The notes beneath the pieces were generated by a model. It saw nothing but the letters and a program-made list of their open reading frames with translations. It made no database searches and was not told the origin of the DNA. This document shows, one piece after another, positions 11,380 through 35,228 of a stretch of DNA of 64,000 nt (positions are counted from its first letter, which is position 1; every line of letters begins with the position of its first letter). The position numbers and the translations under genes are program-made. The DNA is from a virus. The stretch spans positions 35,220 to 99,219 of IMG/VR virus record IMGVR_UViG_3300027749_000063; one strand, written 5' to 3'.

Positions 11380-11657
11380 TGTTTGTCCCAGGGGTTAACG
11401 GTTCTATAATTGCAAATTCTAATGCACTTACAGGTTCAAGACTTAAGGGTGCGTACAAGAATTCTAAGAAATTTGCTAAAGGAGGTAAAGCCTCTGACGA
11501 TAAACAAATGGTTAATGGAGTAGCAAGTATTCTACGTAGAGTAAAAGATCCTAAGAACAGATTGCAATTAGCTAATCAACTTTCAAAGCAATTCAATAGA
11601 GAAAAAGTAAAGTATGACTTAGCTTCTTTTTTAAATAAATCTAAAGTAAAGAAATGA
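11379..11657 (+). CDS. Small basic protein
   Basis: Start overlaps the previous stop (TAATG); RLKGAY and FAKGG motifs. Confidence 0.6.
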   Translation: MFVPGVNGSIIANSNALTGSRLKGAYKNSKKFAKGGKASDDKQMVNGVASILRRVKDPKNRLQLANQLSKQFNREKVKYDLASFLNKSKVKK

Positions 11658-16665: not shown

Positions 16666-19600
16666 ATGCCAAACGATCCTAAATACCCTACACTTGCTCC
16701 TAACGTAGGAAGATTTTCTTCCAAAACAGTAAAGTTAGGAAATACTGCCCAGTCTCAAGCTTTGGCAAACGAAGGAATTATTGCTCAAAATAATTCTATC
16801 TTTCTTGCTCAACAAAAACAACAACAGGAAGCACTTAGAAGTAAAGCAGCTAACGATGCTAAGATTGATGGAGCATTGACAACTGCAGCACAAATTAATT
16901 TAGAAAGCGTAGGATCACTTAGACCAGGAATGTTCTTTTCTCCTCCGTCTACTAAAGGAACAATGGGTCCTCAGTTGACTACAGAGTATCAGTTAGTTAA
17001 CCAAGAGAAAAATAGATCTAAACAAATTCTTACAGAAAGCTTTGGAGAGAAAGATCCTATCTCAGAAGAGTTAGATAAAAAACTAGGTCAAGCAGAAGAT
17101 GAATTAAATACTTTTACTTCTAGAAAACAACAAGGTTCTGCTATTACCAGTGTAGGAGCAGAAGCAGGAGGAGGAGCAGGAGGATTTTTACAAGACTTTA
17201 TTGCAGAGAAGGCTTTAGGACAAGACACTAGTTTAAATAAAGAACAAGAATTAAAGAATACTATTGCTAATCTTAAACAGAGTCAAGCAACTATAAACTC
17301 TTTTAAATCCGATCTACAACTAAAGAAATTTACTACAGATTATCTTACTGAGTTAAAAGGACAAGGTAAGAAGTTTGGAGAACAAGAAGCAGCAACTCTA
17401 ATGCAGAAAGCAAAAGAGATTACAGCAAACCAAAGACATCTTACCAGAGGAGACGATTTGTATGATGACAACACATACAATACTTATATAAAAGACTTTC
17501 AGGGAAAGAATGATTTCTTTGACTGGAGACATACAGACATAAGTTTAGGTAATGCAATAAACTCTGTTTACAATCAAGTAAAATCTGCACAAGGTCCTGA
17601 GAGAGAAGAGTTGGTAGGAGTTCTTAACCAATTACAAGGTTATAGTAAAAGACATGAGGGTTCTAACAAAGACGCTTACGATCATTACTACGGGGGATCA
17701 AAACAATACTACAAAGAAAATACTCCTTGGAAAACTTATTTAGGTAACCAAATTGGAGGGGGAGTTGGAGAAGGATTATACAATGCTTTAGGTACAATAG
17801 TTAGTACTTCTCAAGATCTACTAGGATACCACTCTGCTGCATTTGCTTCTAGACAAGCTAAGGATAAATACTTTTCAGCTGATATGCTTCAAGCGGACTT
17901 AGATGGAGATGGTAGGATTACAGAAAGAGATCAAGACATTAATGGTCAATATCAGTACATTGGAAAGAATGTTACTTATATAAAAGCAGGAGATGGACCA
18001 GATAAAAAAGGAAAGGGTGATGTAGGTTTTATTGGGCAATCTGTTTTAGGAGCTTCTGTAAGAACTCTTGCAGAAATGGCACCTACTTTATTACTTACTA
18101 GGGGTATGATGGCAGCAGGTGCTGGCATGCGAATAGCAACCTTTGCTCCAGTTGCTTTAACTTCTACTATTCGTTCTTATGAAGAGAATCGTAAGTGGTT
18201 CAAAGATAAAGGCACTGCAGCTTTAGTAAGTGGTATTCAAGGAATTATTGAAGGAGCAACTGAATCTATTGTTCCAGACATTAGTTACTTTATGGGTAAC
18301 AAGTCTTTAGGAACAAAAGCTTTAAACAATAGTAGTAGAAAATATTTTACAGCTCAAACTTTAGTTCCTGAGTTTACAACACTTTCTAATGCGGGTAAAA
18401 ACTTTCTTTTAGGAACAGTCTATGCAGGAAAAGCTTTAGGTAAACAAACTTTACAAGAAGGTGCTGAAGAAGAACTTTCGATGTTTGCTAACTATATCTT
18501 AGATAAACAACTTGAAACAAAAGATGATCTTTATGGAAAGAGAGAACAGGAGTTAGATGATAGCAGTGTAGAAGGATTCTTTAAGTCAGTAGCAAAAACA
18601 TTTGTTGAGTCTGCAGCTGCAGGATTACTTATGTCTGGTACTGCTATAGGAAGTTCTCGTACAGAAGATAGGAACTATATGCGATTTAACATTGCAAATA
18701 ATCCTGACCAATTTAAAACAGAACTAAAAAGCCAACTAGAAGCAAAGAAGATTACACAAGATCAGTATAATAAAGGAATTTTGGAGACAGGTCGCTTAAG
18801 TCAATTACAAGAACAAGCGACAAGTACTATGATGAATCTAGTAGACTCAGAAAATCTATTAGAAGATCATGACAAACAATACGAATACTTTTCTAAATTA
18901 CTTACTAGAGATGATCTATTAACTAAAGTAGATTACAATGCTTTGTCTGAAACAGAAAAAGCAGAATACGTTAAGAAAGTAGAGACTGTAGAAAAAGAGA
19001 TAGATAGCTTTGAAAATTCAGCAAGACAGTATGCAAACATGCCTAAAGAAGAGAAAGAAGGCATACTGGCTAAAATGTTTCAGAAGAATCTTGAAACTGT
19101 AAAGAACACAAACAATCCTGCAGTACTTGCAAAAAACTTAAAAGCCATTACAGATGCAATTGAAATAGGAGAGAAAACAGGTAAAGGTTCTCAAGTAGCA
19201 ATCTCAGGAAGACAGCAAGTAAGAGAAGCTTTAGTAGGACAGATAGAAAGACTTCAAACTGTAGAGGATAATGGGAACACTGTATATGAGAATCAATTAT
19301 TAAATACTCCTATAGAATCTGCTGGAGAGTCTATGCAGATAAGTAATGCTGTTAAGTTAGAAAACCTATTGACTGAGAATAAAAACTTAGTCAGCCCTGC
19401 AGTAAGACAACAGTTACTTGGTAAGATTGCTCAGGCTTCTAGTGTTGCAAGAGAAAGACTTAATAGCCTTTCTAAGAAAGAACAGAAGAAAGTTATTGCT
19501 AGAGAATTAGCAAGAGTAGAATTAATATACCCTGGTACTGCTTTTAATAAAGAAAGATTAAAGACATTATTTGGTCAAGACTTAACTCAAGAAGAACACT

Positions 19601-21378
19601 CAGAAGTAATACAGCAAGCTTCAGTTATAACTGCTAGAGAGAAGGAAACTCTTAAGGACGAAGACATATTACAACCTCAAGACGAGGATATAACATTAAA
19701 CTCTTTACTTAAATCTATTGAAGCTACTCCTGCAGAGATTCAAGTAGAGAATGAGATGGGTAATGTAGAAACAAAAAGAAATGAAGAAAGAGTTACTAGG
19801 GAGCGTAGAGCTGTTATGTCTATTCCTAGAGCTAAATCTAAAGAACAAGCAAGAGGTAGAGTTAAAGCTATCTTTAAGGTACTAGGTTATGATACTGAAC
19901 AAATAAATAAAGCTTTAGAAGATCTTAACAAAGTATTTGATAATCAAGAAGTTACAAGTCCAGGTGAAATCTATGAAGGATTTCTTCGCTTCCTTGACTC
20001 AAACTTATTACGTTCTTTACCTGATAGAGCTATTACAACTTCAGAAGATATATTAGCTGAAGAACCTATAGTAACAGAAACAGTAACTCCTCCTATAGTA
20101 ACTGAAACACAGACTTCTGTTGTATCTGAAGAGGATGCTTTATTTGGAACTAATGAAGAGATTGATGCTCGTAGAGGAGCAGCAGAAGTTGTTGTAGAAG
20201 GTCCTACAATAGATGCAGCAGACGAAGTGATAACTGAAACTCCTATTCCTGTAGTGGATCCATTAGATGGTTTAGAAGTAGTTGCTGCAAAGAGTATAGA
20301 TTCCCCTAATCTAGTGGCAACTGTTCCTACAGTATTTACAAATAGTAATGCAGTAGTACAAAGTTCTATTATGAGAACGATCAGTCAATCCTTAGAGTCT
20401 TTTAATCTAAAAGTAGTAGATATGTTCTCTTTTATAAGAGAGACTTTAGGAGAGTCAGCTATGCCTACCTTAGAGAACATCTATAATAATCTAACAGAGG
20501 CGCTTAAAACAAACGACACAGAAGCTATTGCTAGACTTAAAGAAGAGTACTTAGCTGTATTTAGTGGTAGTACATTTGCTAATGAGCAGTTAGAATATAT
20601 CTGGAAAGCACAATACGTAAACGGAAAACCTGATGCTTCCATTCCTTTCCAAGACTTAGCTTATGTTACCAATGGACAGTTTGCTACAGCATACCAAGGA
20701 GACGAAGTAATTGTTACTGCAGTAAAAAAAGAGACAGGAGAAGTGTTTACTTATAATGCAACTGTAACAGGCAAAGTAAATGAATCAAACCAAATCGAAG
20801 TAAAGACTCGTAAGGGTAATATAGTTTATATTAAGAAGAGCAACCTCCAAACTATTGCTCCTAGAACAATAAGTGTAAGAGCAAACTTTAATCAAACTAA
20901 CTCTATTATGATGACTGCAGTAGATAGAACTACTGGAGAGATTGCTAAGTTTAATTCTAACGGAAAAAGAGATGCTCAAGGAGATACACAGTTAAATACA
21001 TTTGTTCCTAGAGAGAATGACGCTATGAAAGAAGTAAGAAAAAGTCTTGCTTCAGGTCAACCTGTTGCTCACACTCTTCCTATACATGCAGGAGCAAGAA
21101 TCAATAGTGCTTTTGCTTATGAAAAGGGAAAGACTTCTGTTTACTTAACAGCTTCAGTTACAGGAATTAACACTGACATACAAACAGTAGCACCTGTAGA
21201 ATTAGATGTAGTATCTGAAGAAATAGTAGAACCACAAGTAACTTCTACCTTAAGTAAAGACGAATTAGACATTCTTTCTTTTGATACTAGTCAGATAGAC
21301 AACCTAGAGATTTCTGAAAATCCTATAAATCAAAGTGATGCGAAAGAGATAGAGGATGCAGCAAGCTGTAAACTATAA
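16666..21378 (+). CDS. Large ejection protein of the virion RNAP cassette
   Basis: 1570 aa; Gly/Ala-rich amphipathic segments and an EGAEEE motif; acidic linkers; a single Cys, in the C-terminal SCKL. Confidence 0.6.
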   Translation: MPNDPKYPTLAPNVGRFSSKTVKLGNTAQSQALANEGIIAQNNSIFLAQQKQQQEALRSKAANDAKIDGALTTAAQINLESVGSLRPGMFFSPPSTKGTMGPQLTTEYQLVNQEKNRSKQILTESFGEKDPISEELDKKLGQAEDELNTFTSRKQQGSAITSVGAEAGGGAGGFLQDFIAEKALGQDTSLNKEQELKNTIANLKQSQATINSFKSDLQLKKFTTDYLTELKGQGKKFGEQEAATLMQKAKEITANQRHLTRGDDLYDDNTYNTYIKDFQGKNDFFDWRHTDISLGNAINSVYNQVKSAQGPEREELVGVLNQLQGYSKRHEGSNKDAYDHYYGGSKQYYKENTPWKTYLGNQIGGGVGEGLYNALGTIVSTSQDLLGYHSAAFASRQAKDKYFSADMLQADLDGDGRITERDQDINGQYQYIGKNVTYIKAGDGPDKKGKGDVGFIGQSVLGASVRTLAEMAPTLLLTRGMMAAGAGMRIATFAPVALTSTIRSYEENRKWFKDKGTAALVSGIQGIIEGATESIVPDISYFMGNKSLGTKALNNSSRKYFTAQTLVPEFTTLSNAGKNFLLGTVYAGKALGKQTLQEGAEEELSMFANYILDKQLETKDDLYGKREQELDDSSVEGFFKSVAKTFVESAAAGLLMSGTAIGSSRTEDRNYMRFNIANNPDQFKTELKSQLEAKKITQDQYNKGILETGRLSQLQEQATSTMMNLVDSENLLEDHDKQYEYFSKLLTRDDLLTKVDYNALSETEKAEYVKKVETVEKEIDSFENSARQYANMPKEEKEGILAKMFQKNLETVKNTNNPAVLAKNLKAITDAIEIGEKTGKGSQVAISGRQQVREALVGQIERLQTVEDNGNTVYENQLLNTPIESAGESMQISNAVKLENLLTENKNLVSPAVRQQLLGKIAQASSVARERLNSLSKKEQKKVIARELARVELIYPGTAFNKERLKTLFGQDLTQEEHSEVIQQASVITAREKETLKDEDILQPQDEDITLNSLLKSIEATPAEIQVENEMGNVETKRNEERVTRERRAVMSIPRAKSKEQARGRVKAIFKVLGYDTEQINKALEDLNKVFDNQEVTSPGEIYEGFLRFLDSNLLRSLPDRAITTSEDILAEEPIVTETVTPPIVTETQTSVVSEEDALFGTNEEIDARRGAAEVVVEGPTIDAADEVITETPIPVVDPLDGLEVVAAKSIDSPNLVATVPTVFTNSNAVVQSSIMRTISQSLESFNLKVVDMFSFIRETLGESAMPTLENIYNNLTEALKTNDTEAIARLKEEYLAVFSGSTFANEQLEYIWKAQYVNGKPDASIPFQDLAYVTNGQFATAYQGDEVIVTAVKKETGEVFTYNATVTGKVNESNQIEVKTRKGNIVYIKKSNLQTIAPRTISVRANFNQTNSIMMTAVDRTTGEIAKFNSNGKRDAQGDTQLNTFVPRENDAMKEVRKSLASGQPVAHTLPIHAGARINSAFAYEKGKTSVYLTASVTGINTDIQTVAPVELDVVSEEIVEPQVTSTLSKDELDILSFDTSQIDNLEISENPINQSDAKEIEDAASCKL

Positions 21379-21408
21379 TAATTAAGTTTTAAAAGTATCA
21401 AACTAAAG

Positions 21409-21416
21409 TATATTTG
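21409..21416 (+). promoter_or_regulatory. -7 promoter element TATATTTG
   Basis: Exact match, 5 nt before the ATG at 21422; no clear -33 TTG. Confidence 0.6.
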
Positions 21417-21421
21417 TAAAG

Positions 21422-24400
21422 ATGGCAAAAATAAACTGTCCTGATAGGGGTAATAAAGATTTCTTAGATTTAAGTAATGCACTAGGCAGTGATGCTTTAG
21501 CTAAATTTATATGGTATAAGAATAGCAACCTTCCTTTGAATCAAACAGAGGACGCAGAAGGAAACATTGTACCTAGTGAAGTATATGATCGTATATTAAA
21601 TGAAGTTGCAGAAGGTAATGAGGCACAAGCTTTAGCTATGGTCTCTACTATGTATCTTCCTAGTTTCCAAGAAAAGTACAGAGAAGAAGATCCAGCCTTT
21701 ACAGTTGACTACATAAAACAAGAAGTACAAGATCATCAAGACAAAGCAGCTAAGAGACAAGGACAACTTATAGAGGAAAAGATAATTCCAGGTACAAAAA
21801 CTCTTTACATTCAAACACCTGAAGGAGACATTGTATACACTCAAGAAGAGGGTAAGGAAATCTTTGACAGCTTAGAGTATTTATTGGCTACAAAGAAAAG
21901 TTGGAAAAGTACTATTGATGCTTTGAAAGAAAGATTCGAAGACATTAGAACTAAAGTAAAAAACTCTACTGTAGATCCTAATGTTATAGTTACACCCCAA
22001 GATACTCTAGTAGGAAAAAACCTTGTTAACATTTTAAAGAACTGGCCTCAAGTAAAAGCTTGGTATCTAAGTCAAGAATCTGTATTTGGATTAGAAGCAA
22101 TAGATGATGAGGTTAATCAAGAGATAGGTAACAGTCCTTACAATAAGAATGCGCATGACTCAAGTCAGATGGATTTGGCTTCATCCCAAGTTATCAAACT
22201 AGTACAAGCTTTACCTAAGTACAATAAACTAACTACACAAGATAGAAAAGATATTAAGTCAGGTAAGAAAAGTATATCTGACTTTCAAGTAATAAGTAAC
22301 ATTACTGGATTTCCTGTAGTAGGGAACTTCTCTACTAACTGGAATGTACTTACTTCAAGTCTATCAGGAATAACTGAATACCCTAAAATTCTTGCAGAGT
22401 TAGCGGTAGTAGCACAAGAGTATCCACAGTTTAATGATATGGTTTCTTTGCTTCCTGAAGAGGATGTGCAAGACGTAGATCTAAACACAGCAAACTTTGT
22501 AGCTTCTTTTGTACAGACAGTCTCTATGCCAGAGATTCTTGCATACCAACTATCTGTTAAAAAACTTACAGGTTCTACTGAATCAAGTAACTTGGTTAGT
22601 AAAGTATTCCAACTAGGTACTAGAACAACTGATAACCTAGTTAGATACTTTGATGAGGATTACTTTAAGTCTAATCCTAAATACGGAACTGTAAATGACA
22701 AAGGTGAGACAGTTTTAAATGTACCTAAGTTATTAGAAGATTTTAGTTACATAAAGAACATCAAACAATTCTTTGCAGGACGTAATAAACTTACAAATGA
22801 GAAGGGAGATTATACTCCAGAAGGCAAAGAGTTATTACAAGGGATACATAAGTTCTACAATGCCTTAGGTATTATTCCTACTAATGCACTTTACCAAAAA
22901 GATAAGAAAGCGCTTTATGACTTTTTATCTGATACTACTTTTACTGTAAGAGAACTGTATGACAAATTAGAAGAGAGTATAGATAACACTTCTATTACTC
23001 AACCTTTACAATTTTTAGGTAAGTCACAAGGATCAGGTAAAGCACTAGGACCTAAGTTTGATGCTATTAATGCAGTTGTAGGATACTATGGTAAATTTGA
23101 AAGAGAGTTTGCTTCAGGTTCTTACTTTAACTCTGAAGATAAACTTCAGTACAATAAAGTACAGTACTTCTACCTTACTCAAGTAACTAATGCTTTAAAC
23201 TCTGTAAAGAGTTATAACGAACTTATAGCTAAGCCAGAGTTTGCTCACCTTGATGTTAGATTGAATCCTAATATTATAGGATCTCTTTGGTTAGAAAAAA
23301 TGTTTGGTATTACTGTTAAGGATAAAACCTTACCTCAGTTATACAAAGAACTTAATTCAGGTAAACAGTTTCCTAGACTTAAAACACAGTTTAGTAAACA
23401 AGACTTTAAGATTAACATTGTAAACTTCTCAGGAGTTAAGGTTGAAGCAGATTTAAAAGACGGTGTAACTACTACCGAACTTACTTCTGAAGATAAAATT
23501 ATACAGGATTTTGCTTCTTTCTTCCAAGAAGGTATGACAGAGAACATCCGCTTTGGAGACAAAGGAACTTCTTATGCTACCATGACCTCAGGTAAAGTAG
23601 AAGAAAGAATGTACGTACCTTTAGATCCTGCAGTATTAGGTAGTAGTGAAAAGTCTACTGTAGTAGAAAAAGTACTAGCAGACCAATTCAAGGCTTACCT
23701 AACTTCAGAGGTAGCAAGAGTACTCAACATTCTAAATAGCGATAAGAAGCACGTATACAATACAAAAGGAAAAGAGTTGTTTATATTCAAAGACATCCTT
23801 CCTAAAGAAGATTATGCTGACTTAACTAGTAACGACAAAGCAACTGTTATAGCAGCCTTTACTCGTGTTAGTGATCAATTACCTACTCACTTGAGTAAGT
23901 ACTTTGAAACACAAACTGCTCTCTACAAACAACGTCTAATAGAATCTACACTAGGAGACAAGAGTGCTATTACTGATAACTCTACTGAACAACAGAAGGA
24001 TCAAGACTTAGCAAATATGTTAAATGCTTTAAACTTTGCTAATCCTGCCTTGTTTAAAAAGAATAAGATTACTCCACAAAACTTAGACTACGTTATAGCT
24101 AACTACTTAAAGAATGATTTCATTCATAAGGTAGAGTTTATGAAAGTCTTTGTAGGAGACATTGCTAACTTCCAAGTTAAGGGAGACTTTCGTGAGGTAT
24201 TTAAACGTATTCCTTTTACTTCTTCTCCTGGATTTGTATTCCAAGACAATGCTGCTGTAATGGCTTATTTAAATAATAGTGGGAACACTAATGGTTTATA
24301 CAAAGCATTAAGAGGAGCAACTCAGAAGTTTCGTAAGACAGTTAGAACAGTTGTCTTTAATGATGTAAATACATTTAGTAAAGAAGACTGGCCTACTTAC

Positions 24401-27400
24401 AGAGCAGCTTTAGGACTTCCTGATACATTAGAGTACCAAGAGTATGTCAACTCTCCTAAAGAAGCAGATGCTCAGGGTTTAGTTAGTTTAGATTTTTATC
24501 GTAACTACATACTAGGATTAGGTCAATGGTCTCAAGAACAAGAAAACGCTTACTTAAATGAGATTGAAATATTTAAAATCTTAAACAAGAAAGATAAAAC
24601 TGAAGAGGACTATGCAAAGATGCAAGAACTCAAGGACAGTACAAACTATGTAGGATTTCCTCCACTTAAGTTAGGTCACTACGGAGCTATTGTAGAGGAT
24701 CCCAAGTTAACTGCCTTACATAAGTATTCTTTGGCTCCAATGATTCCTTCTATGATTGCAGGAACTCAATTAGAGGAGTTGAATAAGCAAATGATTGCTA
24801 AGCAAATTGACTATGCAACATTTAACTCAGGTTCTAAAGCTTCTAACTATGGAGATGCCTTAGACTTTTATGTACCAGATGCAGACAATGCAGGTACACT
24901 TAAAGTAAACCCTAGTATTAAAGGAAACAACATTACGTCTTTACACTTAAAGAATCTTAAACAACAGCAATACATTGCTCCTAAATTTAAGAATGAGGCT
25001 ACACTTTCTACACAGATGGTTAAGCTTATCTTTGGTGACTTTTTTACTGCAGGAAACCTAAGCAACTTGAATGCAGGTACAGCTAAGACAGTCCAAGATT
25101 TATACAAAGAGTACGATCAAGTGCTTGGTAATATCATTGGAATAGAAGAAGCAAACTTATTTAATAAGATAGGTTTGACAAGAGATTCTAGTGGAGCTAT
25201 ATTAGGATTTGATAATAAGAAGTTCTATAACTTCCTAAAGAGTGAGATGGAAAAAAGAGACACTAGTCAGTCTCTTAGGCGTTACATCCAATTAGATGCA
25301 GCAGGAAACTTAAAATATCCCTTAGACGCTACTAAGAATAGAGCAGAGATAGAAAACATCTTATTGTCTATTATTAATAACAAGATTATCTCACAGAAAC
25401 TTCACGGAGAGTCTTACATCCAGATGGCTTCTACAGCTCAGGGAAGTACTAGATTTACTAAACCTACTGAAGAACAGATTAAGAAGTTTGGAATTAATGG
25501 CTTAAGATTCTATCGCAAAGGGGTAAATGGTACAGAGCCTGCAGATGTTAAGATTGCGTTTAATCCTAAGAAGCATGCTCCTCTATTAAACTTAACCTTT
25601 AAAGGACAAAAGATTGGTACAGTAGAAAGACTTAATAAAATTCTAAAGTCTAATAACAAAGAAGCAACTGATTGGGTAGATCAACATACAAAACAACTTA
25701 CTTTAGTAGGAGTACGTATTCCTGTACAGGGTTTAAATTCTATGGAGTATTTTAGAGTAAGAGAGTTCTTATCTACTAGTGCAGGTCCTGTAATTGTAGT
25801 TCCTCCTCAAATTATTGTTAAGGCTGGTTCTGACTTTGATATAGATAAGTTAACTATGTTTGAACCTAAATTGGATCAAAATGGTCAATTAATTAATGAT
25901 GCAGGTTTTACATTAGAAAATTATAATAAAGCATTACCAACTAAAGCTGAGTCTGTACGAATATTAAAAACTTTAAGAGCAGCTAAACAATCTCTAGTTG
26001 AGACCTTAGAAACTATTCCTTCTTATTTAAACAAGAAAGAATTAGAGAAAGAGATAAAAGAACTTAACGAATCTATGTCTTCTACCGAGGAGAACATAGG
26101 CAAGTTTGCTAATACAAAAATGAACTTAGAAGAACTTCAGGCTTTAATGTCAGAAGGATCTACTGAGAAAGAAGACTTGATTAAACAAAAGATAGAAGAA
26201 GTTAAAGCGTTAAGTAAGTCTGGAGAATTAGCGGGTGCATTATCTGCATTGAAAGCACTCAAAAATGAAATTGGAGATTACTCATCTGCTGTGTCTAACG
26301 TAAACAACTTTAAGGACGGTAACGTTAACAGACTTATAGATGTGTTTACTTCAGTTATCTCAATGCCTGAGAACTATAACAAGTTAGTTCTTCCTAATAC
26401 AAACACAATCTTAACAGAGATCTCTGACAAGTTAAATCAGAATCCAATTACTTCTACTGGTTTGTTTAGTCCTCTTACATCTAATCGTGTATATGGAGAC
26501 AATATCGAGTCTAAGAAAGCTTTGGGTATTGACGCTAAACTTAACACTATGCAGAAGGAGTTCCAAATTGCAGGCTTAGTTTACAATAACGAACTCTCTG
26601 GATTTTATCCTTTTGATGCAAACAGAGTAAACGGAGGTATTAGCTTAGGAGAACAAACTCTTACAGATGGAACTGTTATCTCTAGGGTAATCAGTGAAAC
26701 AATTAACGGGCACGTAGATATTGCAAAAGAAGATTGGATTATTCTTTTAGGTTTAGATAAAGCTAAGACTCCTCTTTTTCATGCTATGATTCTTGCAGGT
26801 ACTCCTGTAAGAACTGCTTTAGATTTTTTGAACAAGCCTTTAGTTAAGTATGTACTTAAAGAATCTAACAGAGGTCTGTTGTTTAAACAAATTGGAATGA
26901 GAAGAGGAAGACCAGTTAGTATGACATTTAAGAATGTAATGGTGCAAACATTAAAAGACTTAAATGTATCCGACAACACTAAGTCTTACATTAATATTGC
27001 AATAGATACTTTTAGTAATAAAGATGTAGTTAAGTTTAAACCTTTGATGATGGATTTAAATCGTTTCATCACTGAAGGTGGAGTTAACAATGAATCAGAT
27101 AAACAACAACTAGAAGATTTGTTTAACTTGTATATAATTAAAGAGTTACAAGGATCAGTTCAACAGTTAACTAGTTTAGTAGATTACAACACTAAGAGAT
27201 TCCAAAACTCCTATCAAGTAAAAGCAGATGCAATTACTTACGGCAGAGTAGTAGAAAGTTTTAATAGAGACGGTTTAAATAAACTTACTCAACAGTCTGC
27301 TTTATCTAACTTTAACCAAGCAGGAACAGTTCTTTCCCTCATGCCACAAGTATTTGATGTATCTAATCATCCTTCAGTATTAGATGCTATTTCTCAATAC

Positions 27401-28537
27401 ACTAATAGAGCAGGAAAATATACTGACGATGACTTAGTAAAAGCATCTAAAAAGATTAAAGACAATTATCTAGTAGCAATGGTTCAACTTTTTGGTGTAG
27501 ATCAAACAGGTACTAAGTTACAAGACAAGTTTTTCTCTGCTGCTGGATTGTTTAATAAAACCAATCCTAATAACATAGCAAAGAAACTTGCTGACCTTAC
27601 AGAAAAGTATAGTGATCTATCTAAGAATCAGATAATTGCTAACCTTTACACTGCTGAGAATTCGTCAAAGAATATTATATTTAAGCTTAGAAATGCTAAT
27701 CTAGATGCTTATCTAGTAGGTGAGTATGAGAAAGCATTTATAGAAGGACTTAATGATGTGAGAGAAGATGTAAGCGAGTTATTTAAGAACATTGGTCTGG
27801 GTACATTCTTACAGTTTGGCTTTAGCAATAACTCTTATGGCTTATCTCAAGTAATTCCTTACGAGACTTACGTAGACCAAACGACTAAAGCAGTAAACAA
27901 ACTTAAGTTAATGCAGGGGAACAAAATAGTATCTGAACAACTCGCTGGATATATTTCTCAGATGACTTATTTTAATGACAGCAAAGATGTTCCTACTTTA
28001 GTCTTAGATAAGAACGTAGCTAAGAGAGAGCATGAGCCAGACTTTAATGTTAGATTACTTTTGATAGAAGAAAAAATAGATAGTGCTCTTAGAGGAATTC
28101 TAACTTTCCAAACTAAAAACTATACAAATCTTGAAAATCTTAAGTCTACAAATAGATTCAGAGGACTTCGTATAGAGTTTGTAGACAAATTATCTACTAG
28201 TAAAAATACTCCAGTTGCTATGCGAAACTCTAACGGAGTTATACAAATAGCAGAGAAAGACTTACTTAATAAGTTTAACGATAAAGCATGGACTAAGTCA
28301 GCTAAACAAAAAGATGACAGTTATTCTACTCCTTTAGCTTCAGATGAGTTTAAATCCTTTGAAGAGTTTTTAACTTTTGCTTTGATACATGAAGTAAAAC
28401 ATGAGACTATAAAGAAGTCAGAAGACCAAACAATAGGTCAGTACGAAGATCAGATCAATGAAGCAGCTTTAGTTGATCTTAGAAACAACTACAAGCAAGA
28501 AAAGTTTGATGATGTAGTAGATCCATTTAAATGTTAA
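21422..28537 (+). CDS. Virion-packaged single-chain two-barrel RNA polymerase (crAss-like, phi14:2 gp66-type) with a C-terminal HExxH domain
   Basis: Catalytic GSDFDIDKL, upstream VRIPVQGLNS and ADAQG motifs, 2371 aa; ALIHEVKHE near the C-terminus. Confidence 0.9.
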   Translation: MAKINCPDRGNKDFLDLSNALGSDALAKFIWYKNSNLPLNQTEDAEGNIVPSEVYDRILNEVAEGNEAQALAMVSTMYLPSFQEKYREEDPAFTVDYIKQEVQDHQDKAAKRQGQLIEEKIIPGTKTLYIQTPEGDIVYTQEEGKEIFDSLEYLLATKKSWKSTIDALKERFEDIRTKVKNSTVDPNVIVTPQDTLVGKNLVNILKNWPQVKAWYLSQESVFGLEAIDDEVNQEIGNSPYNKNAHDSSQMDLASSQVIKLVQALPKYNKLTTQDRKDIKSGKKSISDFQVISNITGFPVVGNFSTNWNVLTSSLSGITEYPKILAELAVVAQEYPQFNDMVSLLPEEDVQDVDLNTANFVASFVQTVSMPEILAYQLSVKKLTGSTESSNLVSKVFQLGTRTTDNLVRYFDEDYFKSNPKYGTVNDKGETVLNVPKLLEDFSYIKNIKQFFAGRNKLTNEKGDYTPEGKELLQGIHKFYNALGIIPTNALYQKDKKALYDFLSDTTFTVRELYDKLEESIDNTSITQPLQFLGKSQGSGKALGPKFDAINAVVGYYGKFEREFASGSYFNSEDKLQYNKVQYFYLTQVTNALNSVKSYNELIAKPEFAHLDVRLNPNIIGSLWLEKMFGITVKDKTLPQLYKELNSGKQFPRLKTQFSKQDFKINIVNFSGVKVEADLKDGVTTTELTSEDKIIQDFASFFQEGMTENIRFGDKGTSYATMTSGKVEERMYVPLDPAVLGSSEKSTVVEKVLADQFKAYLTSEVARVLNILNSDKKHVYNTKGKELFIFKDILPKEDYADLTSNDKATVIAAFTRVSDQLPTHLSKYFETQTALYKQRLIESTLGDKSAITDNSTEQQKDQDLANMLNALNFANPALFKKNKITPQNLDYVIANYLKNDFIHKVEFMKVFVGDIANFQVKGDFREVFKRIPFTSSPGFVFQDNAAVMAYLNNSGNTNGLYKALRGATQKFRKTVRTVVFNDVNTFSKEDWPTYRAALGLPDTLEYQEYVNSPKEADAQGLVSLDFYRNYILGLGQWSQEQENAYLNEIEIFKILNKKDKTEEDYAKMQELKDSTNYVGFPPLKLGHYGAIVEDPKLTALHKYSLAPMIPSMIAGTQLEELNKQMIAKQIDYATFNSGSKASNYGDALDFYVPDADNAGTLKVNPSIKGNNITSLHLKNLKQQQYIAPKFKNEATLSTQMVKLIFGDFFTAGNLSNLNAGTAKTVQDLYKEYDQVLGNIIGIEEANLFNKIGLTRDSSGAILGFDNKKFYNFLKSEMEKRDTSQSLRRYIQLDAAGNLKYPLDATKNRAEIENILLSIINNKIISQKLHGESYIQMASTAQGSTRFTKPTEEQIKKFGINGLRFYRKGVNGTEPADVKIAFNPKKHAPLLNLTFKGQKIGTVERLNKILKSNNKEATDWVDQHTKQLTLVGVRIPVQGLNSMEYFRVREFLSTSAGPVIVVPPQIIVKAGSDFDIDKLTMFEPKLDQNGQLINDAGFTLENYNKALPTKAESVRILKTLRAAKQSLVETLETIPSYLNKKELEKEIKELNESMSSTEENIGKFANTKMNLEELQALMSEGSTEKEDLIKQKIEEVKALSKSGELAGALSALKALKNEIGDYSSAVSNVNNFKDGNVNRLIDVFTSVISMPENYNKLVLPNTNTILTEISDKLNQNPITSTGLFSPLTSNRVYGDNIESKKALGIDAKLNTMQKEFQIAGLVYNNELSGFYPFDANRVNGGISLGEQTLTDGTVISRVISETINGHVDIAKEDWIILLGLDKAKTPLFHAMILAGTPVRTALDFLNKPLVKYVLKESNRGLLFKQIGMRRGRPVSMTFKNVMVQTLKDLNVSDNTKSYINIAIDTFSNKDVVKFKPLMMDLNRFITEGGVNNESDKQQLEDLFNLYIIKELQGSVQQLTSLVDYNTKRFQNSYQVKADAITYGRVVESFNRDGLNKLTQQSALSNFNQAGTVLSLMPQVFDVSNHPSVLDAISQYTNRAGKYTDDDLVKASKKIKDNYLVAMVQLFGVDQTGTKLQDKFFSAAGLFNKTNPNNIAKKLADLTEKYSDLSKNQIIANLYTAENSSKNIIFKLRNANLDAYLVGEYEKAFIEGLNDVREDVSELFKNIGLGTFLQFGFSNNSYGLSQVIPYETYVDQTTKAVNKLKLMQGNKIVSEQLAGYISQMTYFNDSKDVPTLVLDKNVAKREHEPDFNVRLLLIEEKIDSALRGILTFQTKNYTNLENLKSTNRFRGLRIEFVDKLSTSKNTPVAMRNSNGVIQIAEKDLLNKFNDKAWTKSAKQKDDSYSTPLASDEFKSFEEFLTFALIHEVKHETIKKSEDQTIGQYEDQINEAALVDLRNNYKQEKFDDVVDPFKC

Positions 28538-28548
28538 AATAAGAAGAC

Positions 28549-29058
28549 ATGGCAACTTGTAACGTAAGAACAACAAACAAAGAGTATATGGTTAGTAAGG
28601 GAGCCCTAGAGAATGGGTCTGCTAAAGTAAAAAATGAACGTCTATTTGATGTGCATAATGCAGAGATAAGAGATGCAGCAAACCAACGCTATAACCTAAA
28701 GACTGAAGAACTTCCTTTCTCTAAGGCAGTAAGAGATATTCCTAGAAGTGGTAGAACAGCTTCTAATTATTTCATAGAGTGGCAGTTTAATGACAAGTTC
28801 TTTGATGAAGTAACTCCTATAGTAGAGATGTATAAATCTATGGAGGATATATCTGAAGAAGAAAATATGACTCAACCTTCTTATACTCAGACTCAACTAG
28901 ACTTTAATGATTTAGTAAACGATGATATAATTATAAATGAGTCACCTATTAGATTTACTTATCCTTACGAGGCAGAAGACTACATGGCAGACATGAGTCC
29001 TGAAATAAAGAAAGAACTTAGTAAAGTAGAATTTAAAGAACTAAACTGTAATCTTTAA
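28549..29058 (+). CDS. Small acidic protein of the RNAP cassette (putative linker)
   Basis: 169 aa; Cys only at residues 4 and 167. Confidence 0.6.
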   Translation: MATCNVRTTNKEYMVSKGALENGSAKVKNERLFDVHNAEIRDAANQRYNLKTEELPFSKAVRDIPRSGRTASNYFIEWQFNDKFFDEVTPIVEMYKSMEDISEEENMTQPSYTQTQLDFNDLVNDDIIINESPIRFTYPYEAEDYMADMSPEIKKELSKVEFKELNCNL

Positions 29059-29059
29059 C

Positions 29060-29067
29060 TATATTTG
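29060..29067 (+). promoter_or_regulatory. -7 promoter element TATATTTG
   Basis: Exact match in the 34-nt gap before the ATG at 29093. Confidence 0.6.
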
Positions 29068-29092
29068 TATTAACTTAAGATAAACTTAAATA

Positions 29093-32000
29093 ATGTCTTG
29101 TAAAGCATCAATAAAATCTCCCATTACTGGTAACACAGTATCCTCAACAGCATACTTTCAGTTAACTAATCTTTTTGACAAACAAAAAGCAGTAGACGTT
29201 TATAACAGTATGTATACTCCAGGGTTTAAAGACCTATTAGGATTTGATTGGACTACTAACACAGCACACAGGGAGGAGTTAAACCTAAACGGAGAACCTA
29301 AGATTGAATATCTAAACAAGATATTAGGTTTAGATTTAAGTCAGTATGAGATTGATGCAGTAAACTCAGAAGAAGATATCCTTAGTCAGTTAGATCCTAC
29401 ACAAGAATTTGATTCTTTTGAGGAAGCAAGTGTAGCAGCTGCTGGGTTTAACATGAATCCAAGATACAAGAACATATCTACAGATGTTGTTAGAACAGAT
29501 AACGGATTTAGATTAACTGTAGGTATCAACCAATCTCCTCAAAGTATAACTAAGGAAACTTTGTCTGCTTTAGGATTTGGAACACTTGTTACTCAGTTCT
29601 TTCCTTCTACTAATTCTAGTTGGAGTGATGTAGTTAATAGTTTGCTTACTGGTGATCAGTTACCTGAGTTCCAAAAGAATATTTTATCTAAGTTAGTAGA
29701 ACTACAGAATAAGAATGCTCGTGTAAAGCTTGTAGTGTTTGATGACACACAAGACTCAGATCCTGGACAAGTTGCTTTCTATGATAACAACACAGGAACA
29801 ATTTACATAGGCAAGACTGTAAGTGAGAGTATGAACAATTCTAAGCTTGTTAGAGACCTTATCCATGAGTCTTTGCATGCTTATACCATTAAAGCGTTAA
29901 ACGAGCCTGTAACAGAGCAGGAGAAAGCGTTTAAGGCAGAGATGGAGAAGATATTTAATTCTTACTTAAAGAAGTTCCCTAACCTAGCTGTTAACTATGG
30001 CTTTAAGAACGTAGAAGAGTTTGTAAGTGAGGTTATGTCTAACCCACACTTCAGAGCTGCTTTAACTACCCAGCAGGAATCTTTAAAGAATGATAAGAAT
30101 TTCTTAGGTAATCTTTTAGAGAAAATAGGTAACTTCTTTAAAGGACTATACACAGACCTTCCTAATGTTAATGAGATTGCAGAAACTATTAACGAATACC
30201 TAGATAACTTGATTGAGACAGGTGACATGCCTTTAACTCAGGGAGAGTATGATCTTCGTTTTAGAAATGAGAAGTATAATGCACAAGGTCAAACAGATCT
30301 AGAAAGATTTCCTGAGTTAGAGAAGTTTGTTGAATTTATTAACAAAAACTCTTCCACAAGTATGTGGAGTCAGATTACTCAATCTCTAAAAGAAATAGAT
30401 GCTACTCTTAGAAATACTGGAAGACTGCAGGAACGTTTTAGTGACATTAATGCTGTAGATGCTAAGACTATCTTAGCTAATACAATAAGTTATCTTAACT
30501 CAGCGTTTTCTACGCTTAAGACTGTACAAGATCAATTAGAATTATATAGAGATAACATATCAGAGTTTGAAGACTTTGCTATCATTAAAACCTTCAACTA
30601 CGCAAAGAACTTAAGTGGAGTAATCAAACAACAGATAGATGTGTTTGAATCTGAGCTTAATCAACTCTTTGATGTATCAGAGATAGCTGACTTACAGGAG
30701 AGAGCTACTACTACAGAAGCTTTAGAAAAAGCTATTCCTGATTTCCAAACAGTAATAAGCGAACTAAGAGATTCATTGACTAAGTCACGTAGTTTAGCAA
30801 ACTCTATTGAAAGCGACTACAACAACTATGTGTTAGCACCTATTGCAAGAGAGCTAGCTAGTTCTTTTGGAGAATCTGCTACAGCAGAAGGTAAGAAGCA
30901 AACACAACAGATGATCAATGCTTTAACTGTTGCCAGAGATAAAGCAAGAACACAAGGTAAAACTAAACTAGCAGAAGCTTTAACTCAGGAGATAAAAGAC
31001 TTACAACAACTACAATCTTTTATACCTACTGCAAAGAACATTGAAGCTTTACTAAAGAACGATAGGAAGTTAGGAAAAGAAACAAGTGTCTTAGGGATGT
31101 GGATTAATAATGCTGTACAAGGAAAGAATCCTACAGTACAGATTATTAAACAGTTCATAGATAAAGCTACTGCAGAAGCTTCTAATAACTCAGGTAAGTT
31201 TAGTAAGCGTGCTCAGGATATCTTTGACAGACTACGTAACCTAAGAGGTAAGCTAGCTACTGAGATTTCAACCTTTCAATCTTTGTATAAAGGTTACACA
31301 CGAGAGGTAGAGGTTTTACATAAGCAGCCAGATGGTTCTCTTAAGAAAGTTAAACAAGCTGTTCTAAATACTAAATTAAAAGAAGAGGAATTCCAAAACG
31401 ATCTTAAACTTCTATTACAAAGAGAAGAGGATGCTGTTAAGACAGGTGATCAAGCTAAGATAGACCAAGCTAAGGAAGCTACTAATAAATTTTTAGAAGA
31501 CTACGCTTTAGCTCCTTACACAGAGGAGTACTATAAGATTCAAAACCTATTAACTGAAGAAGCAAAAGAAGCAAGAGAAGAATATCTAAAAGAAATAAAC
31601 TACTTATCAGAAGACTCTGATCCAGACGAGGGTACTAAGGCGGAGATTAAAAGACTGTTAACAGAGTTTGCTAGACTAGGTTCTATATACTATGCTAATG
31701 GAGATGAGAAAGTAGAAGGCAGTAAAGAAAGAAGAATAGCTGAGTCTATTATAGCCTGGAAGAAGGAAAGAAATAACCAAGACGTATTAACCTACGATAA
31801 CACAGTTAAGCGTAAGCAGTGGCAGATTAAAAAGAATCAGATAGATGAACAGTATTCTAAAATCCTAAAGAGGAAGAACGCTGCAGATATTTCATTATCT
31901 ATGGCAGCCTTTACAGGACAGTCAGAAGAGACTTTAGGAGAAGCAAACCAAAAGATAACAGCAGAGTTTGAAGAAGCAAAGAAAGTAAGAGACGAATGGT

Positions 32001-35000
32001 ATGCAGAAAATACCAGAATAGAACTCACTCCACAGTTTTTTGAAGAACAGACTGCAATTACAGAAGCTATTAATACTATTTATTCTAAGTACGCTAGTAC
32101 AGAGAGTACGGACTTAAGTGATCTTTATACTAAACTCTTTAATGCTGTATTAGGATTCAGAGATACGGATGGAGTTATTCAAGCTAACGATGTAACTAAT
32201 GCAGGTAATCTATTTGAAACTATTAAAAACTTAGAAAAGCAAATAGATGAAGCCAAGAAAGAAGTAGATGCTAGCAGAGAGATAAGTCAAGATGATAAGA
32301 AAGAGTTAGGAAGATTGTTTAAGATGCTAGGAGGACTCCAAAGCAGAAAAGAGACTTCTTACTACACAGAGAAGGTAGCAGAGGTTAAAGGTTCTATCAG
32401 AGCTAAACTAATGCAAGATACTGCTTATATGGATGAGGTAGAAGAAGCAGCAGTAGAAAGAAGAAATACTTACTTAGCAGCAAAATTAATAACTCCCTTT
32501 ACTACAGTACAGGAAATCAAGCAAGCAATGCTTGAAGAACAGGTAGAAGACTTGTATAGACAGAGTGAGTGGTTTAAAAACAATCACATTACTACACAAG
32601 AAACAAAAACTGTTGACGGAGACCAAGTTACTGCAACAAAACAAAGACCTTCTTATATCTGGACTCAGACAGTTCCAAATGATCCAAGATACATAAACCA
32701 AGACAATCCCTCTTTCCAATGGTCAGTTCCTGTAATTGACGAGAAGTTTAAGAATAGAGATTATAAATTTACCTCAGAACCTAGACCTAGAGTAACTGAA
32801 GATGGTAAATACTCTAACCCAGAGTATACTAGACTACCTTTAGAGGAGAGAGCTATCTTAGATGACATTATTACTTTACATGAAGACGTACAGAAAGAAC
32901 TTCCAAAGAGTCAACGTGTAGGGTATGCATTAGTGAATGAAGCTAAAGGAACTCTTGAGGCTACTTCTACAGTACTTAGAAGACCTTTGAATACTTTCTC
33001 AGGAATCCTAGAGTTACTTAAACTTACATTTGTTCCTAACATTGGATCTAATGAGTACGAACAGTTAGATGATTCACAAGTTGCTACTATTCAAGGAAGA
33101 AAGGTACAGTTAATTCGTAATAGGTATAAGACTCCTTTAAATTCTAGTCAAGTATCTTATAACATCTTAGGTAATATAGCTAAGTTTGGAGTTTACTCTT
33201 CACACTTTGCAGCTATGCAAAAGATTATGCCTACAGTATTTAGTGCAAGAGAAGCTCTTCAAAGAGGAGATGCAGCTGATAGTACTTTGTCAACTGTAGA
33301 CTTTGAAATCTCTAAAAACTTCTACGGAGAAGAAATTGCTTCTATTGGAAACAATAAATACGTTAAGTTGTTTAGTCGTCCTGCAAATAAATTCTTATCA
33401 GTAGGTCAACGTAAAGCTCTACAGTTTAACGTAATTGCTTCTGTAAAGAACTTTGCAGTCAACTTGTGGAACGCAGGCATAAATAAAAACTTAGCAGGAG
33501 TATCTCGTACAGAATTCTTACAAGGTATGGTAAGAGCTATGAGACAGTCAGATAAGTTCTTTGATATCTACAGAGGTGGGGGAAATGTTTCTTACTATGC
33601 AGATCTATTAATGCATTTTCAGGCTTTCTCTAAAGCTCAGTCTACTAACAAAGCAGATAACATACATCAAACTATGTTAAATAGATATGTATCTAGTGAG
33701 ACTGCTGGTTTTATTCTAAGAGGATACTTAGAGAATATTTCTACAGGAGCTGTATTCGAGTCTATTATGAATCAATACAACGTAACTATTGATGAGGGGG
33801 GAGTAAAAAGAACTATAAAGTTAGCAGAAGCCTACGAACAGAGAGATGGTAAACTTCAGTTAAAGCCTGGAGTAGAGGCAAATAACATAGAAAGACTAGA
33901 ACAAGAAATCAGAGATAGGATATACAACTTCCAAACTTCAAGCCAAGGTAACTACTATAAGAGAGGCTCAGCAAAGTATGAGCGTTACTTAATAATGAGA
34001 ATGATCATGAGTATGAAGCGTTGGGTAGCTACTACTTTTAATAACAAATATGGTTCTAGAAGAATTCAGTTGAATACAGGAAACATAGAAAAAGGATTCA
34101 ATAGAGAAGTATTAGCTTATACTAAGTTACTTGTTATGGGAGGAACTTCTATGGCTAACGATACTACCACTGATCAACAGAAGTCTAGAATGAAGACAGC
34201 AGCTGTCAACTTAGTTGCTATGCTTGCAGTACAACAAGCTTTAATTACTACTATGGGTATCATTGCACAGTCTTTAGATGGAGATGACGATGATGAAACA
34301 AGTCCTGTACTAGCATTTGTTGCTAACCTTCTACAAGGTATTCATGATGAGTTAAGTACATTTAGTCCTATTGGAGTAGCAAACTGGGCTTACAGAGCCT
34401 TTGTCCAGACACCTACTAAGTCTCCTGGAGAAAGCGATGCAGTTGCAAGAGGCAAGCAGTTGGCTTATAGTTTTATTGGAGGTACAACTAAATCTTCTCT
34501 AGATGCTATTACTCCTTTCCTAGACGGAGATACTTGGAGTGATCCTACGGGTTCTTACTCTTATAAGTATAGTAATGGTCTTCCAAATGAGTTTAGTACT
34601 CCTGAAGCACTATATGGTAAGCCTAAATTACTAGCAGCATTCATGATATACTCAGGGGTAGAGACAGGTATGACTCAGTTCCTACAACCAGAGAAAAAGC
34701 TTTTCAATGTACTTAAGTATAATCCAAGGTTAGACATAACAGAAGAAAGAAGAATCAAACTAGATCCTTTGGGAAGTTACAATCAATTGGGTGAGAGAAT
34801 TTCTGAGATTAAGAAAGAGTTAAAACAAGTAGGTAACGACAGAATCACTAACATGGTAGAACGTCAAGCTAAAATAACAGAGATTATGGAAGCAGAAAGA
34901 ACAATGGAGAATATTGGAAAACAATACCCATATGTAGGTGCTTACTATAAAAATAGAAAGTTTGCTTCTTCTGTAGGAACTAGACAAGGATCAGAACTAG

Positions 35001-35122
35001 AAAGAGAAATGAAGATGTACGAACTTCAAAACAATCCTAATGACTACATCAAAAAGAAGATGGAATCTAAGATAGAAGGTATGAAGAATAAGATGGAATA
35101 CCAGAGACTTAAGAGAAAGTAG
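29093..35122 (+). CDS. Large polyvalent ejection protein with a zincin metallopeptidase domain
   Basis: AFYD...IYI...LIHESLHAYT...NVEEFVSEVMSNPHF zincin signature; long helical C-terminal region; the only Cys is residue 3. Confidence 0.75.
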   Translation: MSCKASIKSPITGNTVSSTAYFQLTNLFDKQKAVDVYNSMYTPGFKDLLGFDWTTNTAHREELNLNGEPKIEYLNKILGLDLSQYEIDAVNSEEDILSQLDPTQEFDSFEEASVAAAGFNMNPRYKNISTDVVRTDNGFRLTVGINQSPQSITKETLSALGFGTLVTQFFPSTNSSWSDVVNSLLTGDQLPEFQKNILSKLVELQNKNARVKLVVFDDTQDSDPGQVAFYDNNTGTIYIGKTVSESMNNSKLVRDLIHESLHAYTIKALNEPVTEQEKAFKAEMEKIFNSYLKKFPNLAVNYGFKNVEEFVSEVMSNPHFRAALTTQQESLKNDKNFLGNLLEKIGNFFKGLYTDLPNVNEIAETINEYLDNLIETGDMPLTQGEYDLRFRNEKYNAQGQTDLERFPELEKFVEFINKNSSTSMWSQITQSLKEIDATLRNTGRLQERFSDINAVDAKTILANTISYLNSAFSTLKTVQDQLELYRDNISEFEDFAIIKTFNYAKNLSGVIKQQIDVFESELNQLFDVSEIADLQERATTTEALEKAIPDFQTVISELRDSLTKSRSLANSIESDYNNYVLAPIARELASSFGESATAEGKKQTQQMINALTVARDKARTQGKTKLAEALTQEIKDLQQLQSFIPTAKNIEALLKNDRKLGKETSVLGMWINNAVQGKNPTVQIIKQFIDKATAEASNNSGKFSKRAQDIFDRLRNLRGKLATEISTFQSLYKGYTREVEVLHKQPDGSLKKVKQAVLNTKLKEEEFQNDLKLLLQREEDAVKTGDQAKIDQAKEATNKFLEDYALAPYTEEYYKIQNLLTEEAKEAREEYLKEINYLSEDSDPDEGTKAEIKRLLTEFARLGSIYYANGDEKVEGSKERRIAESIIAWKKERNNQDVLTYDNTVKRKQWQIKKNQIDEQYSKILKRKNAADISLSMAAFTGQSEETLGEANQKITAEFEEAKKVRDEWYAENTRIELTPQFFEEQTAITEAINTIYSKYASTESTDLSDLYTKLFNAVLGFRDTDGVIQANDVTNAGNLFETIKNLEKQIDEAKKEVDASREISQDDKKELGRLFKMLGGLQSRKETSYYTEKVAEVKGSIRAKLMQDTAYMDEVEEAAVERRNTYLAAKLITPFTTVQEIKQAMLEEQVEDLYRQSEWFKNNHITTQETKTVDGDQVTATKQRPSYIWTQTVPNDPRYINQDNPSFQWSVPVIDEKFKNRDYKFTSEPRPRVTEDGKYSNPEYTRLPLEERAILDDIITLHEDVQKELPKSQRVGYALVNEAKGTLEATSTVLRRPLNTFSGILELLKLTFVPNIGSNEYEQLDDSQVATIQGRKVQLIRNRYKTPLNSSQVSYNILGNIAKFGVYSSHFAAMQKIMPTVFSAREALQRGDAADSTLSTVDFEISKNFYGEEIASIGNNKYVKLFSRPANKFLSVGQRKALQFNVIASVKNFAVNLWNAGINKNLAGVSRTEFLQGMVRAMRQSDKFFDIYRGGGNVSYYADLLMHFQAFSKAQSTNKADNIHQTMLNRYVSSETAGFILRGYLENISTGAVFESIMNQYNVTIDEGGVKRTIKLAEAYEQRDGKLQLKPGVEANNIERLEQEIRDRIYNFQTSSQGNYYKRGSAKYERYLIMRMIMSMKRWVATTFNNKYGSRRIQLNTGNIEKGFNREVLAYTKLLVMGGTSMANDTTTDQQKSRMKTAAVNLVAMLAVQQALITTMGIIAQSLDGDDDDETSPVLAFVANLLQGIHDELSTFSPIGVANWAYRAFVQTPTKSPGESDAVARGKQLAYSFIGGTTKSSLDAITPFLDGDTWSDPTGSYSYKYSNGLPNEFSTPEALYGKPKLLAAFMIYSGVETGMTQFLQPEKKLFNVLKYNPRLDITEERRIKLDPLGSYNQLGERISEIKKELKQVGNDRITNMVERQAKITEIMEAERTMENIGKQYPYVGAYYKNRKFASSVGTRQGSELEREMKMYELQNNPNDYIKKKMESKIEGMKNKMEYQRLKRK

Positions 35123-35157: not shown

Positions 35158-35228
35158 TAATACGGGCTTAACAGCCGAGTACTCAAGTACTGTACCGATA
35201 ATTAAACTTAAAATAAGACTATACAATT

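Follow-up and report, generated by a model that had tools for sequence, protein, structure and literature searches.

Paired cysteines at the facing protein ends of a crass-like phage virion RNA polymerase cassette suggest a disulfide-linked chain

Crassviruses, which in the human gut are more abundant than any other phages, have to store RNA polymerase (RNAP) machinery of ~700 kDa in the particle and inject it through a narrow tail. The sequence analysed here is a 64,000-nucleotide stretch of viral DNA (IMG/VR record IMGVR_UViG_3300027749_000063, positions 35,220 to 99,219; hereafter the window, numbered from its first letter). Judged from its sequence, the window carries the virion RNA polymerase cassette of a crAss-like phage, broken into four polypeptides. 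These are encoded by four closely packed plus-strand open reading frames (ORFs) that span 16666–35122 and were labelled A, B, S and C:

16666..21378, plus strand: protein A, 1570 amino acids (aa), 173 kDa, first in the chain, homologue of phi14:2 g067 and crAss001 gp47
21422..28537, plus strand: protein B, 2371 aa, 267 kDa, virion RNA polymerase, with a match to phi14:2 gp66 and a D[FY]DxD motif
28549..29058, plus strand: protein S, 169 aa, 20 kDa, isoelectric point (pI) 4.6, detached C-terminal module of the RNAP
29093..35122, plus strand: protein C, 2009 aa, 228 kDa, last in the chain, homologue of phi14:2 g065 and crAss001 gp49

The 6119 aa of A, B, S and C were found to contain only six cysteine (Cys) residues, each of them no more than 6 residues from a terminus that faces a junction. 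The sole Cys of protein A is residue 1568 (codon 21367–21369), protein B has Cys 6 (21437–21439) and Cys 2371, its final residue (28532–28534), protein S has only Cys 4 (28558–28560) and Cys 167 (29047–29049), and the sole Cys of protein C is residue 3 (29099–29101). At each break the upstream Cys is 0–3 residues from the C-terminus and the downstream Cys is at position 3–6 from the N-terminus, the remainder of the proteins being Cys-free, and no Cys is present at the free ends of the chain, namely the N-terminus of A and the C-terminus of C. The codon is TGT in all six cases. By chance, six Cys would be confined to the 36 junction-facing terminal positions among 6119 with a probability of ~4e-14. 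This arrangement had been described in an earlier sequence-only reading of the window, and the Cys map of the four ORFs matches that description exactly. The chain mass of roughly 690 kDa given there agrees with the summed mass of 688 kDa computed here, and the reported difference between two Cys-free upstream cargo proteins and Cys-rich tail proteins was also borne out, with no Cys in the upstream ORFs of 804 and 578 aa and 1.7–6.9% Cys in the tail-module ORFs of the window (e.g. 17 Cys in 1544–3430 and 28 Cys in 5579–10585). In an AlphaFold2 (AF2) model of protein C, Cys 3 is on a low-confidence N-terminal tip that is presumably flexible.

Mapping of Cys in orthologous RNAP cassettes, a check proposed in the sequence-only reading, was carried out on 153 loci from IMG/VR and GenBank, which were clustered at 80% RNAP identity to give 71 cassettes. 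A junction was scored as positive when the last 10 residues of the upstream protein and the first 10 of the downstream protein each contained a Cys. A Cys pair was present at 109 of 121 junctions and pairs were absent where the genes are fused. A C-terminal Cys was found in none of 68 last proteins, and an N-terminal Cys in none of the 52 first proteins that were identified on the same strand. The N-terminal Cys occupies positions 3–7 and the C-terminal Cys positions −1 to −9, the neighbouring residues being mostly Lys, Asn, Ser, Ala and Pro, and both Cys codons are used (TGT 199, TGC 28). Internal Cys make up 0.032% of cassette residues (119 in 375,595 aa), whereas 490 control ORFs from the same loci contain 1.0% Cys, with a Cys in residues 2–10 in 8% and in the last 10 residues in 12%. 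The terminal Cys are conserved down to about 22–35% identity and are kept in all 40–44 crAss001-like strains.

Most of the 12 junctions that do not conform are artefacts, arising from frameshifted or recoded assemblies (L150, L098) or from a cargo protein miscounted as a member of the cassette (L073). The apparent exception in L093 is a miscalled start, the true start being M-A-S-C, and that in L081 is explained by a Cys located beyond the scored region. Orphan terminal Cys were found at 5 of the 121 junctions, nearly all in broken assemblies. Depletion of internal Cys is relaxed in the named gut phages, with seven in p-crAssphage gp44, six in cr4_1, eight and six in cr6_1 and three in DAC15, and there are essentially none in marine and freshwater relatives, a pattern that was noted with no test applied. 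One clade (L089:4613-13900, L090:3872-13081, L093:4062-13079) has RNAPs with 10–20 internal Cys. Despite this loss of depletion, the terminal Cys are kept on the RNAP and its downstream partner, and positive selection for the terminal pairs is therefore separable from general avoidance of Cys. A scan of IMG/VR using the Cys-rich RNAP of L089 as the seed found only the contigs of L089 itself and L090.

The presence of the pairs is strictly coupled to the gene breaks. Where A and B are fused (L056, L060, L063, L073, L094 and L102), the fusion protein has no internal Cys, and the Cys that remain are at its C-terminus and at the N-terminus of C. In the B+C fusions (L038, L039 and L076), all that is left is the C-terminal Cys of A and a Cys at the N-terminus of the fusion protein, and where B and S are fused (L016 and L019) the pair of the B|S junction is gone. 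In L087, L091, L092 and L096, A, B and C form a single polyprotein of 5520–5639 aa that has no Cys at all. The junction regions of the fusion proteins are linkers without Cys, of low conservation and as long as the two free tails combined. When the states of the A|B and B|C junctions were mapped on a tree of the RNAP catalytic region, the A|B state was found to change at least 7 times, at least 4 of these changes being required by branches with good support, and two changes were found in the B|C state. In the 56 clusters in which the A|B junction could be scored, the pair was present in 43/43 split and 0/13 fused cassettes. The independent contrasts for A|B, five on supported branches and seven on all branches, were all concordant.

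The pairs do not depend on adjacency of the genes. In crAss001, the gene for gp47 (A) is on the opposite strand from those for gp50 and gp49, and the Cys are kept. The A gene is likewise on the other strand in DAC15 (gp61/gp63/gp62), again with the Cys kept, and five more clusters with a non-adjacent A gene (L082, L088, L148, L152 and L093) also keep them. In L031, B and C are separated by three unrelated genes rich in Cys, and the terminal Cys are retained. The pattern is therefore a property of the proteins rather than of the DNA junction.

The same rule is obeyed by the cultured phages phi14:2, crAss001, crAss002, DAC15, Flavobacterium phage Fpv1 and p-crAssphage. In phi14:2, the sole Cys of g067 (1797 aa) is its last residue, g066 (2180 aa) has Cys 3 and Cys 2179, and g065 (1421 aa) has Cys 3. 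In crAss001, the only Cys of gp47 (2341 residues) is at position 2339, gp50 has Cys 5, 1334 and 2404, and gp49 has Cys 5. The order of the proteins is rearranged in p-crAssphage, in which the zincin protein gp45 comes first and has a Cys at −2, and the RNAP gp44 starts with M-S-C and has no C-terminal Cys. The proteins of these cultured cassettes (phi14:2 g067-g066-g065 and those of crAss001, DAC15, crAss002 and p-crAssphage) are homologous to those of the window, which differs in that S is split off the RNAP, giving three potential links instead of two. Among homologues of the cassette proteins, only those of phi14:2 and crAss001 have been reported to be packaged in the virion and ejected, on the basis of mass spectrometry (for crAss001, PMC10172136). 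In crAss002 (gp32-gp33), the RNAP gp33 (L159, GenBank accession number MN917146; coordinates 17088–17190) has an internal M-S-C at residue 33 that fits the N-terminal signature of the other cassettes, and the annotated start is, from this sequence, probably 32 codons too far upstream.

An additional ORF is inserted exactly at a cassette junction in several relatives (L029:17185-17682, L044:18730-19233, L078:14480-14971, L081:7746-8240, and also L035, L053 and L086). It encodes a ferritin-like protein of ~165 aa (Pfam Ferritin/Rubrerythrin) with internal but no terminal Cys, and by the rule is not a member of the chain. No ferritin-like insert is present in the window. A gene for handling iron or oxidants at a cassette junction may be relevant to thiol chemistry.

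A structure is available for a comparable pair of Cys in the cyanopodophage A4 (Anabaena phage A-4L), where cryo-electron microscopy revealed a disulfide between gp27 Cys1715 and gp26 Cys5 inside the capsid, in the pre-ejectosome, with the C-terminal helix of gp27 lodged in a cleft of gp26 (PNAS 2025, PMC12002296). In the A4 genome, gp27 (1717 aa) was found to have a single Cys at 1715 and the next gene product, gp26 (1114 aa), a single Cys at 5. Both are retained in Pf-WMP3, Pf-WMP4 and TR020 (~25% identity), and the signature is conserved across the Saffermanviridae. As in the window, near-sole Cys are found beside the C-terminus of the upstream protein and the N-terminus of the following one. 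However, A4 has one link, compared with two or three in series in crassviruses, its system does not include an RNA polymerase, and its authors considered the bond a local staple within a pentameric ring, with no reference to a chain or a general rule (PMC12002296). As blastp of A4 gp26 and gp27 against the window proteins detected no similarity (all E > 0.2), the A4 proteins are analogues and not relatives. By this analogy, a terminal-Cys signature can represent a real disulfide between packaged ejection proteins.

Giant ejected chains that include an RNAP and are free of Cys are found in N4-like phages, in which the virion RNAP is ~3,500 aa, as well as in the crass-like A+B+C polyproteins. 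Their continuity is provided by peptide bonds, with no redox-labile joints, unlike that of the disulfide-linked thread considered here. The RNAP of N4 is of a type unrelated to the crass RNAP, and published work has connected the avoidance of Cys in N4-like ejected proteins with their passage across the periplasm. Disulfides between virion proteins of a crassvirus particle, as proposed for the cassette, have been seen in the atlas of crAss001, where they join subunits in the tail barrel, the tail hubs and the gp57 dimer (Bayfield 2023, PMC10172136), but those are static staples in a Cys-rich tail and capsid and not head-to-tail links of ejected cargo.

As the facing Cys are gained and lost together and the outer ends are Cys-free, a bond between them is the simplest reading. 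From the sequence comparisons and the analogy with A4, the two Cys at each break probably form an intermolecular disulfide, so that A, B, S and C would make up one linear covalent thread of ~690 kDa in the released particle. Physically, the thread would correspond to the ~5,600-aa polyprotein, one chain without Cys, of some relatives. The bonds would form by oxidation after lysis and could lock an arrangement already set by non-covalent contacts. Cargo of crAss001 must partly unfold to pass constrictions of under 50 Å (PMC10172136), and a linked thread might behave in the narrow channel of the tail as a single polypeptide that is partly unfolded. As the links would be at the extreme ends, the side stubs would be only a few residues long, and the thread could thus pass the channel as a single chain. 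The disulfides may order ejection or tow the RNAP, and the links would open in the reducing cytoplasm of the host, freeing the RNAP and its partners. A broader proposal, that the RNAP and its partners form one covalent, redox-cleavable thread in which disulfides take the place of the peptide bonds of an ancestral or alternative polyprotein, that reduction in the host cytoplasm triggers the separation and activation of its components, and that the device arose independently in cyanopodophages, is put forward only tentatively.

Several points weigh against a disulfide-linked thread. The atlas of crAss001, in which gp47, gp49 and gp50 are not resolved, places disulfides only in the tail and gp57 (PMC10172136). 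Crassviruses of the gut live without oxygen yet keep the pairs, which calls for another route of oxidation or another role for the Cys. Assembly takes place in a reducing cytoplasm, where a disulfide cannot recruit or count proteins. The loss of both Cys on fusion would be equally expected if each Cys merely needs a terminus, and the Cys-free outer ends are the only feature that argues specifically for pairing. The phylogenetic sign test reaches only p = 0.0625, a limit set by the five supported contrasts. Among individual loci, one Cys in L081 is 18 residues from the end, and unpartnered Cys were found in two others. In L066 (L066:7370-19364), the RNAP is split around an ORF of 1161 aa and an 871-aa piece has an N-terminal Cys with no partner, and in L085 (L085:5027-19798) a 307-aa S-like protein ends in a Cys that has no visible partner, the start of the next protein being ambiguous. 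It is possible that frameshifts or inserted elements account for L066 and L085. The linear chain of C-terminal to N-terminal Cys that was claimed in the sequence-only reading is partly supported: it passed the comparative tests (conservation, joint loss on fusion, Cys-free outer ends and retention in non-adjacent genes), and its S–S bonds are putative. The accompanying claim that the disulfides fix stoichiometry is doubtful, because the cytoplasm in which the particles are put together is reducing and disulfides could arise only once the proteins have been packaged.

The comparative data reveal the pairing of the Cys and not its chemistry, and the facing Cys could be joined by something other than a disulfide, such as a shared metal in a zinc-clasp-like site, perhaps between two or more chains, or another thiol crosslink. 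The retention of pairs in gut phages from anoxic habitats would fit such a link. However, there is a single Cys per terminus, with no conserved His, Cys or Asp nearby that could complete a metal site, and the only solved example of the signature, in A4, is a plain disulfide, making this explanation unlikely. It is also improbable that each terminal Cys acts alone or with a like partner, forming homodimers (A-A, C-C) or an anchor to the portal, the inner face of the capsid or the muzzle. Loss on fusion is consistent with this, as the terminus no longer exists, and lone terminal Cys that have no partner in the next gene do occur, in the product of 11654–12226 in the window, in gp47 and gp48 of p-crAssphage and in gp30 of crAss002. 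Independent action would, however, leave unexplained the absence of Cys from the outer ends (0/68 C-termini and 0/52 N-termini), the matching numbers across each break and the near-absence of orphans (5/121), and the bond in A4 is heterotypic, between a Cys near the C-terminus of gp27 and one near the N-terminus of gp26. Pairing in a different order, with the RNAP cyclised and A linked to C, was rejected, since each fusion would force the remaining Cys to find new partners and since it is contradicted by the two-protein systems of p-crAssphage and A4, in which the C-terminus pairs with the next N-terminus.

Some relatives have a single polyprotein that is thought to be cleaved (phi14:2 RNAP preprint), and inteins and introns are present in crassviruses (Yutin 2021 genome survey), raising the question of whether the Cys are relics or tools of processing, either by autoproteolytic or intein-like chemistry at former polyprotein sites or by trans-splicing. 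This is very unlikely, given that the Cys are 0–9 residues from the ends, with no space for the halves of a split intein (~100 aa and ~35 aa), and that the known reactions of N–S acyl-shift cleavage make no use of a Cys at the upstream C-terminus; a Pfam search also found no domain. Moreover, the uncleaved polyproteins contain no Cys, and cleavage of the polyprotein therefore cannot depend on these residues. A lipoprotein lipobox was also rejected, as the N-termini M-A-K-I-N-C, M-A-T-C and M-S-C have no hydrophobic segment or signal peptide. The exclusive use of TGT in the window and the tight packing of its genes might suggest that the pattern is due to chance, to composition, to wrongly called gene ends or to a signal in the nucleotide sequence of the junctions, but these explanations are already refuted by the comparative sequence data. 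Beyond the low probability of chance, conservation is at the protein level at 22–35% identity, both codons are used and the position is variable. A DNA-level signal is ruled out by crAss001 and DAC15, in which the Cys are kept although the A gene is on the opposite strand and distant from where B begins. As to miscalled ends, the rule itself corrects miscalled starts, in L093 and crAss002 gp33.

The terminal Cys are not mentioned in the phi14:2 RNAP preprint, the crAss001 atlas (PMC10172136), the Yutin 2021 survey or the papers on DEV and N4, and full-text literature searches found no description of a terminal-Cys chain for Crassvirales. The view in the sequence-only reading that the arrangement was undescribed thus holds for Crassvirales in the literature searched but not beyond them, as the one-link case of phage A4 is already published (PMC12002296), though not generalised there. 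The sequence rule tells which protein ends touch and in what order, and gives a concrete physical model, that of a single thread as the counterpart of the polyprotein in some relatives and of the N4 polymerase, itself one chain. It is also an aid to annotation, fixing miscalled starts such as that of crAss002 gp33 and separating members of the chain from inserted passenger genes. If a disulfide-linked thread did arise independently in crassviruses and cyanopodophages, pairs of terminal Cys in ejection proteins that are otherwise Cys-free would be a design rule, general and predictable, for the way short-tailed phages eject proteins.

The identity of the window proteins was examined further. 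Protein B matched phi14:2 g066 (gp66), the catalytic virion RNAP, with a tblastn E value of 2e-14, and the D[FY]DxD catalytic motif is at residue 1471. Protein S is the counterpart of the C-terminal module of the RNAP, which is in one gene with B in the relatives L016 and L019; its AF2 model is of low confidence (predicted local distance difference test, pLDDT, 42) and mostly coil, and the protein may be largely disordered. In protein C, an HExxH motif at residue 258 is conserved in the alignment of relatives. The N-terminal 350 residues were modelled with good confidence and gave weak fold matches (best E 0.014) that were consistently to zincin metalloproteases, in agreement with the zincin-like domain described for phi14:2 gp65 (phi14:2 RNAP preprint). 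No family was assigned to A, B, S or C in searches of Pfam and PHROGs, and phmmer searches of B and C against PDB sequences gave no matches.

The following features were identified upstream of the cassette:

3590-4231: match to the CrAss_Ring_2 domain
4737-5573: match to the CrAss_Ring_1 domain
12509..14923, plus strand: cargo-type protein of 804 aa without Cys, preceding the chain but outside it
14927..16663, plus strand: cargo-type protein, 578 aa, no Cys, with an N-terminal NRF/NRY motif

A large virion structural protein of 1668 aa is also encoded upstream. The 804-aa ORF occupies the slot of cargo genes of the crAss001 gp45 and phi14:2 g069 type, and Pfam and PHROG searches with it found no family. 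The NRF/NRY motif of the 578-aa ORF is common to proteins of the phi14:2 g068 and crAss001 gp46 type, and the matches in relatives are all Cys-free. A crass-like replication module with PolA-like, Toprim, AAA_24, UDG and PDDEXK genes is on the minus strand. The synteny of the cassette is therefore one in which ring, muzzle and cargo genes are upstream and the replication module is on the opposite strand. An ORF for a LAGLIDADG homing endonuclease (59459–60454, minus strand) is located within the replication module, between the UDG-like gene and a DnaA-C-like/primase pair. Downstream of the cassette, the products of the adjoining plus-strand ORFs 37132–39228 and 39237–40856 (698 and 539 aa) are identical in their first 31 residues, and the two are, from their sequences, probably tail-fibre paralogues that share an attachment module.

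Terminal Cys were also observed elsewhere in the window. The DUF6321 protein encoded by 11654–12226 (plus strand; 190 aa, pI 11.2) has a conserved C-terminal Cys (...R-W-K-C) and the product of the next gene has none; p-crAssphage gp47 and gp48 and crAss002 gp30 likewise have a lone near-terminal Cys at their end. Three consecutive, Cys-rich ORFs of the tail module (329–835, 1016–1540 and 1544–3430, plus strand) also have Cys at their facing ends. The product of 329–835 ends in Cys, that of 1016–1540 starts with M-T-K-C-C and ends with C-T-C-C, and that of 1544–3430 starts with M-S-T-C-I-D-C. By analogy with the tail barrel of crAss001, these facing Cys may be inter-subunit staples.

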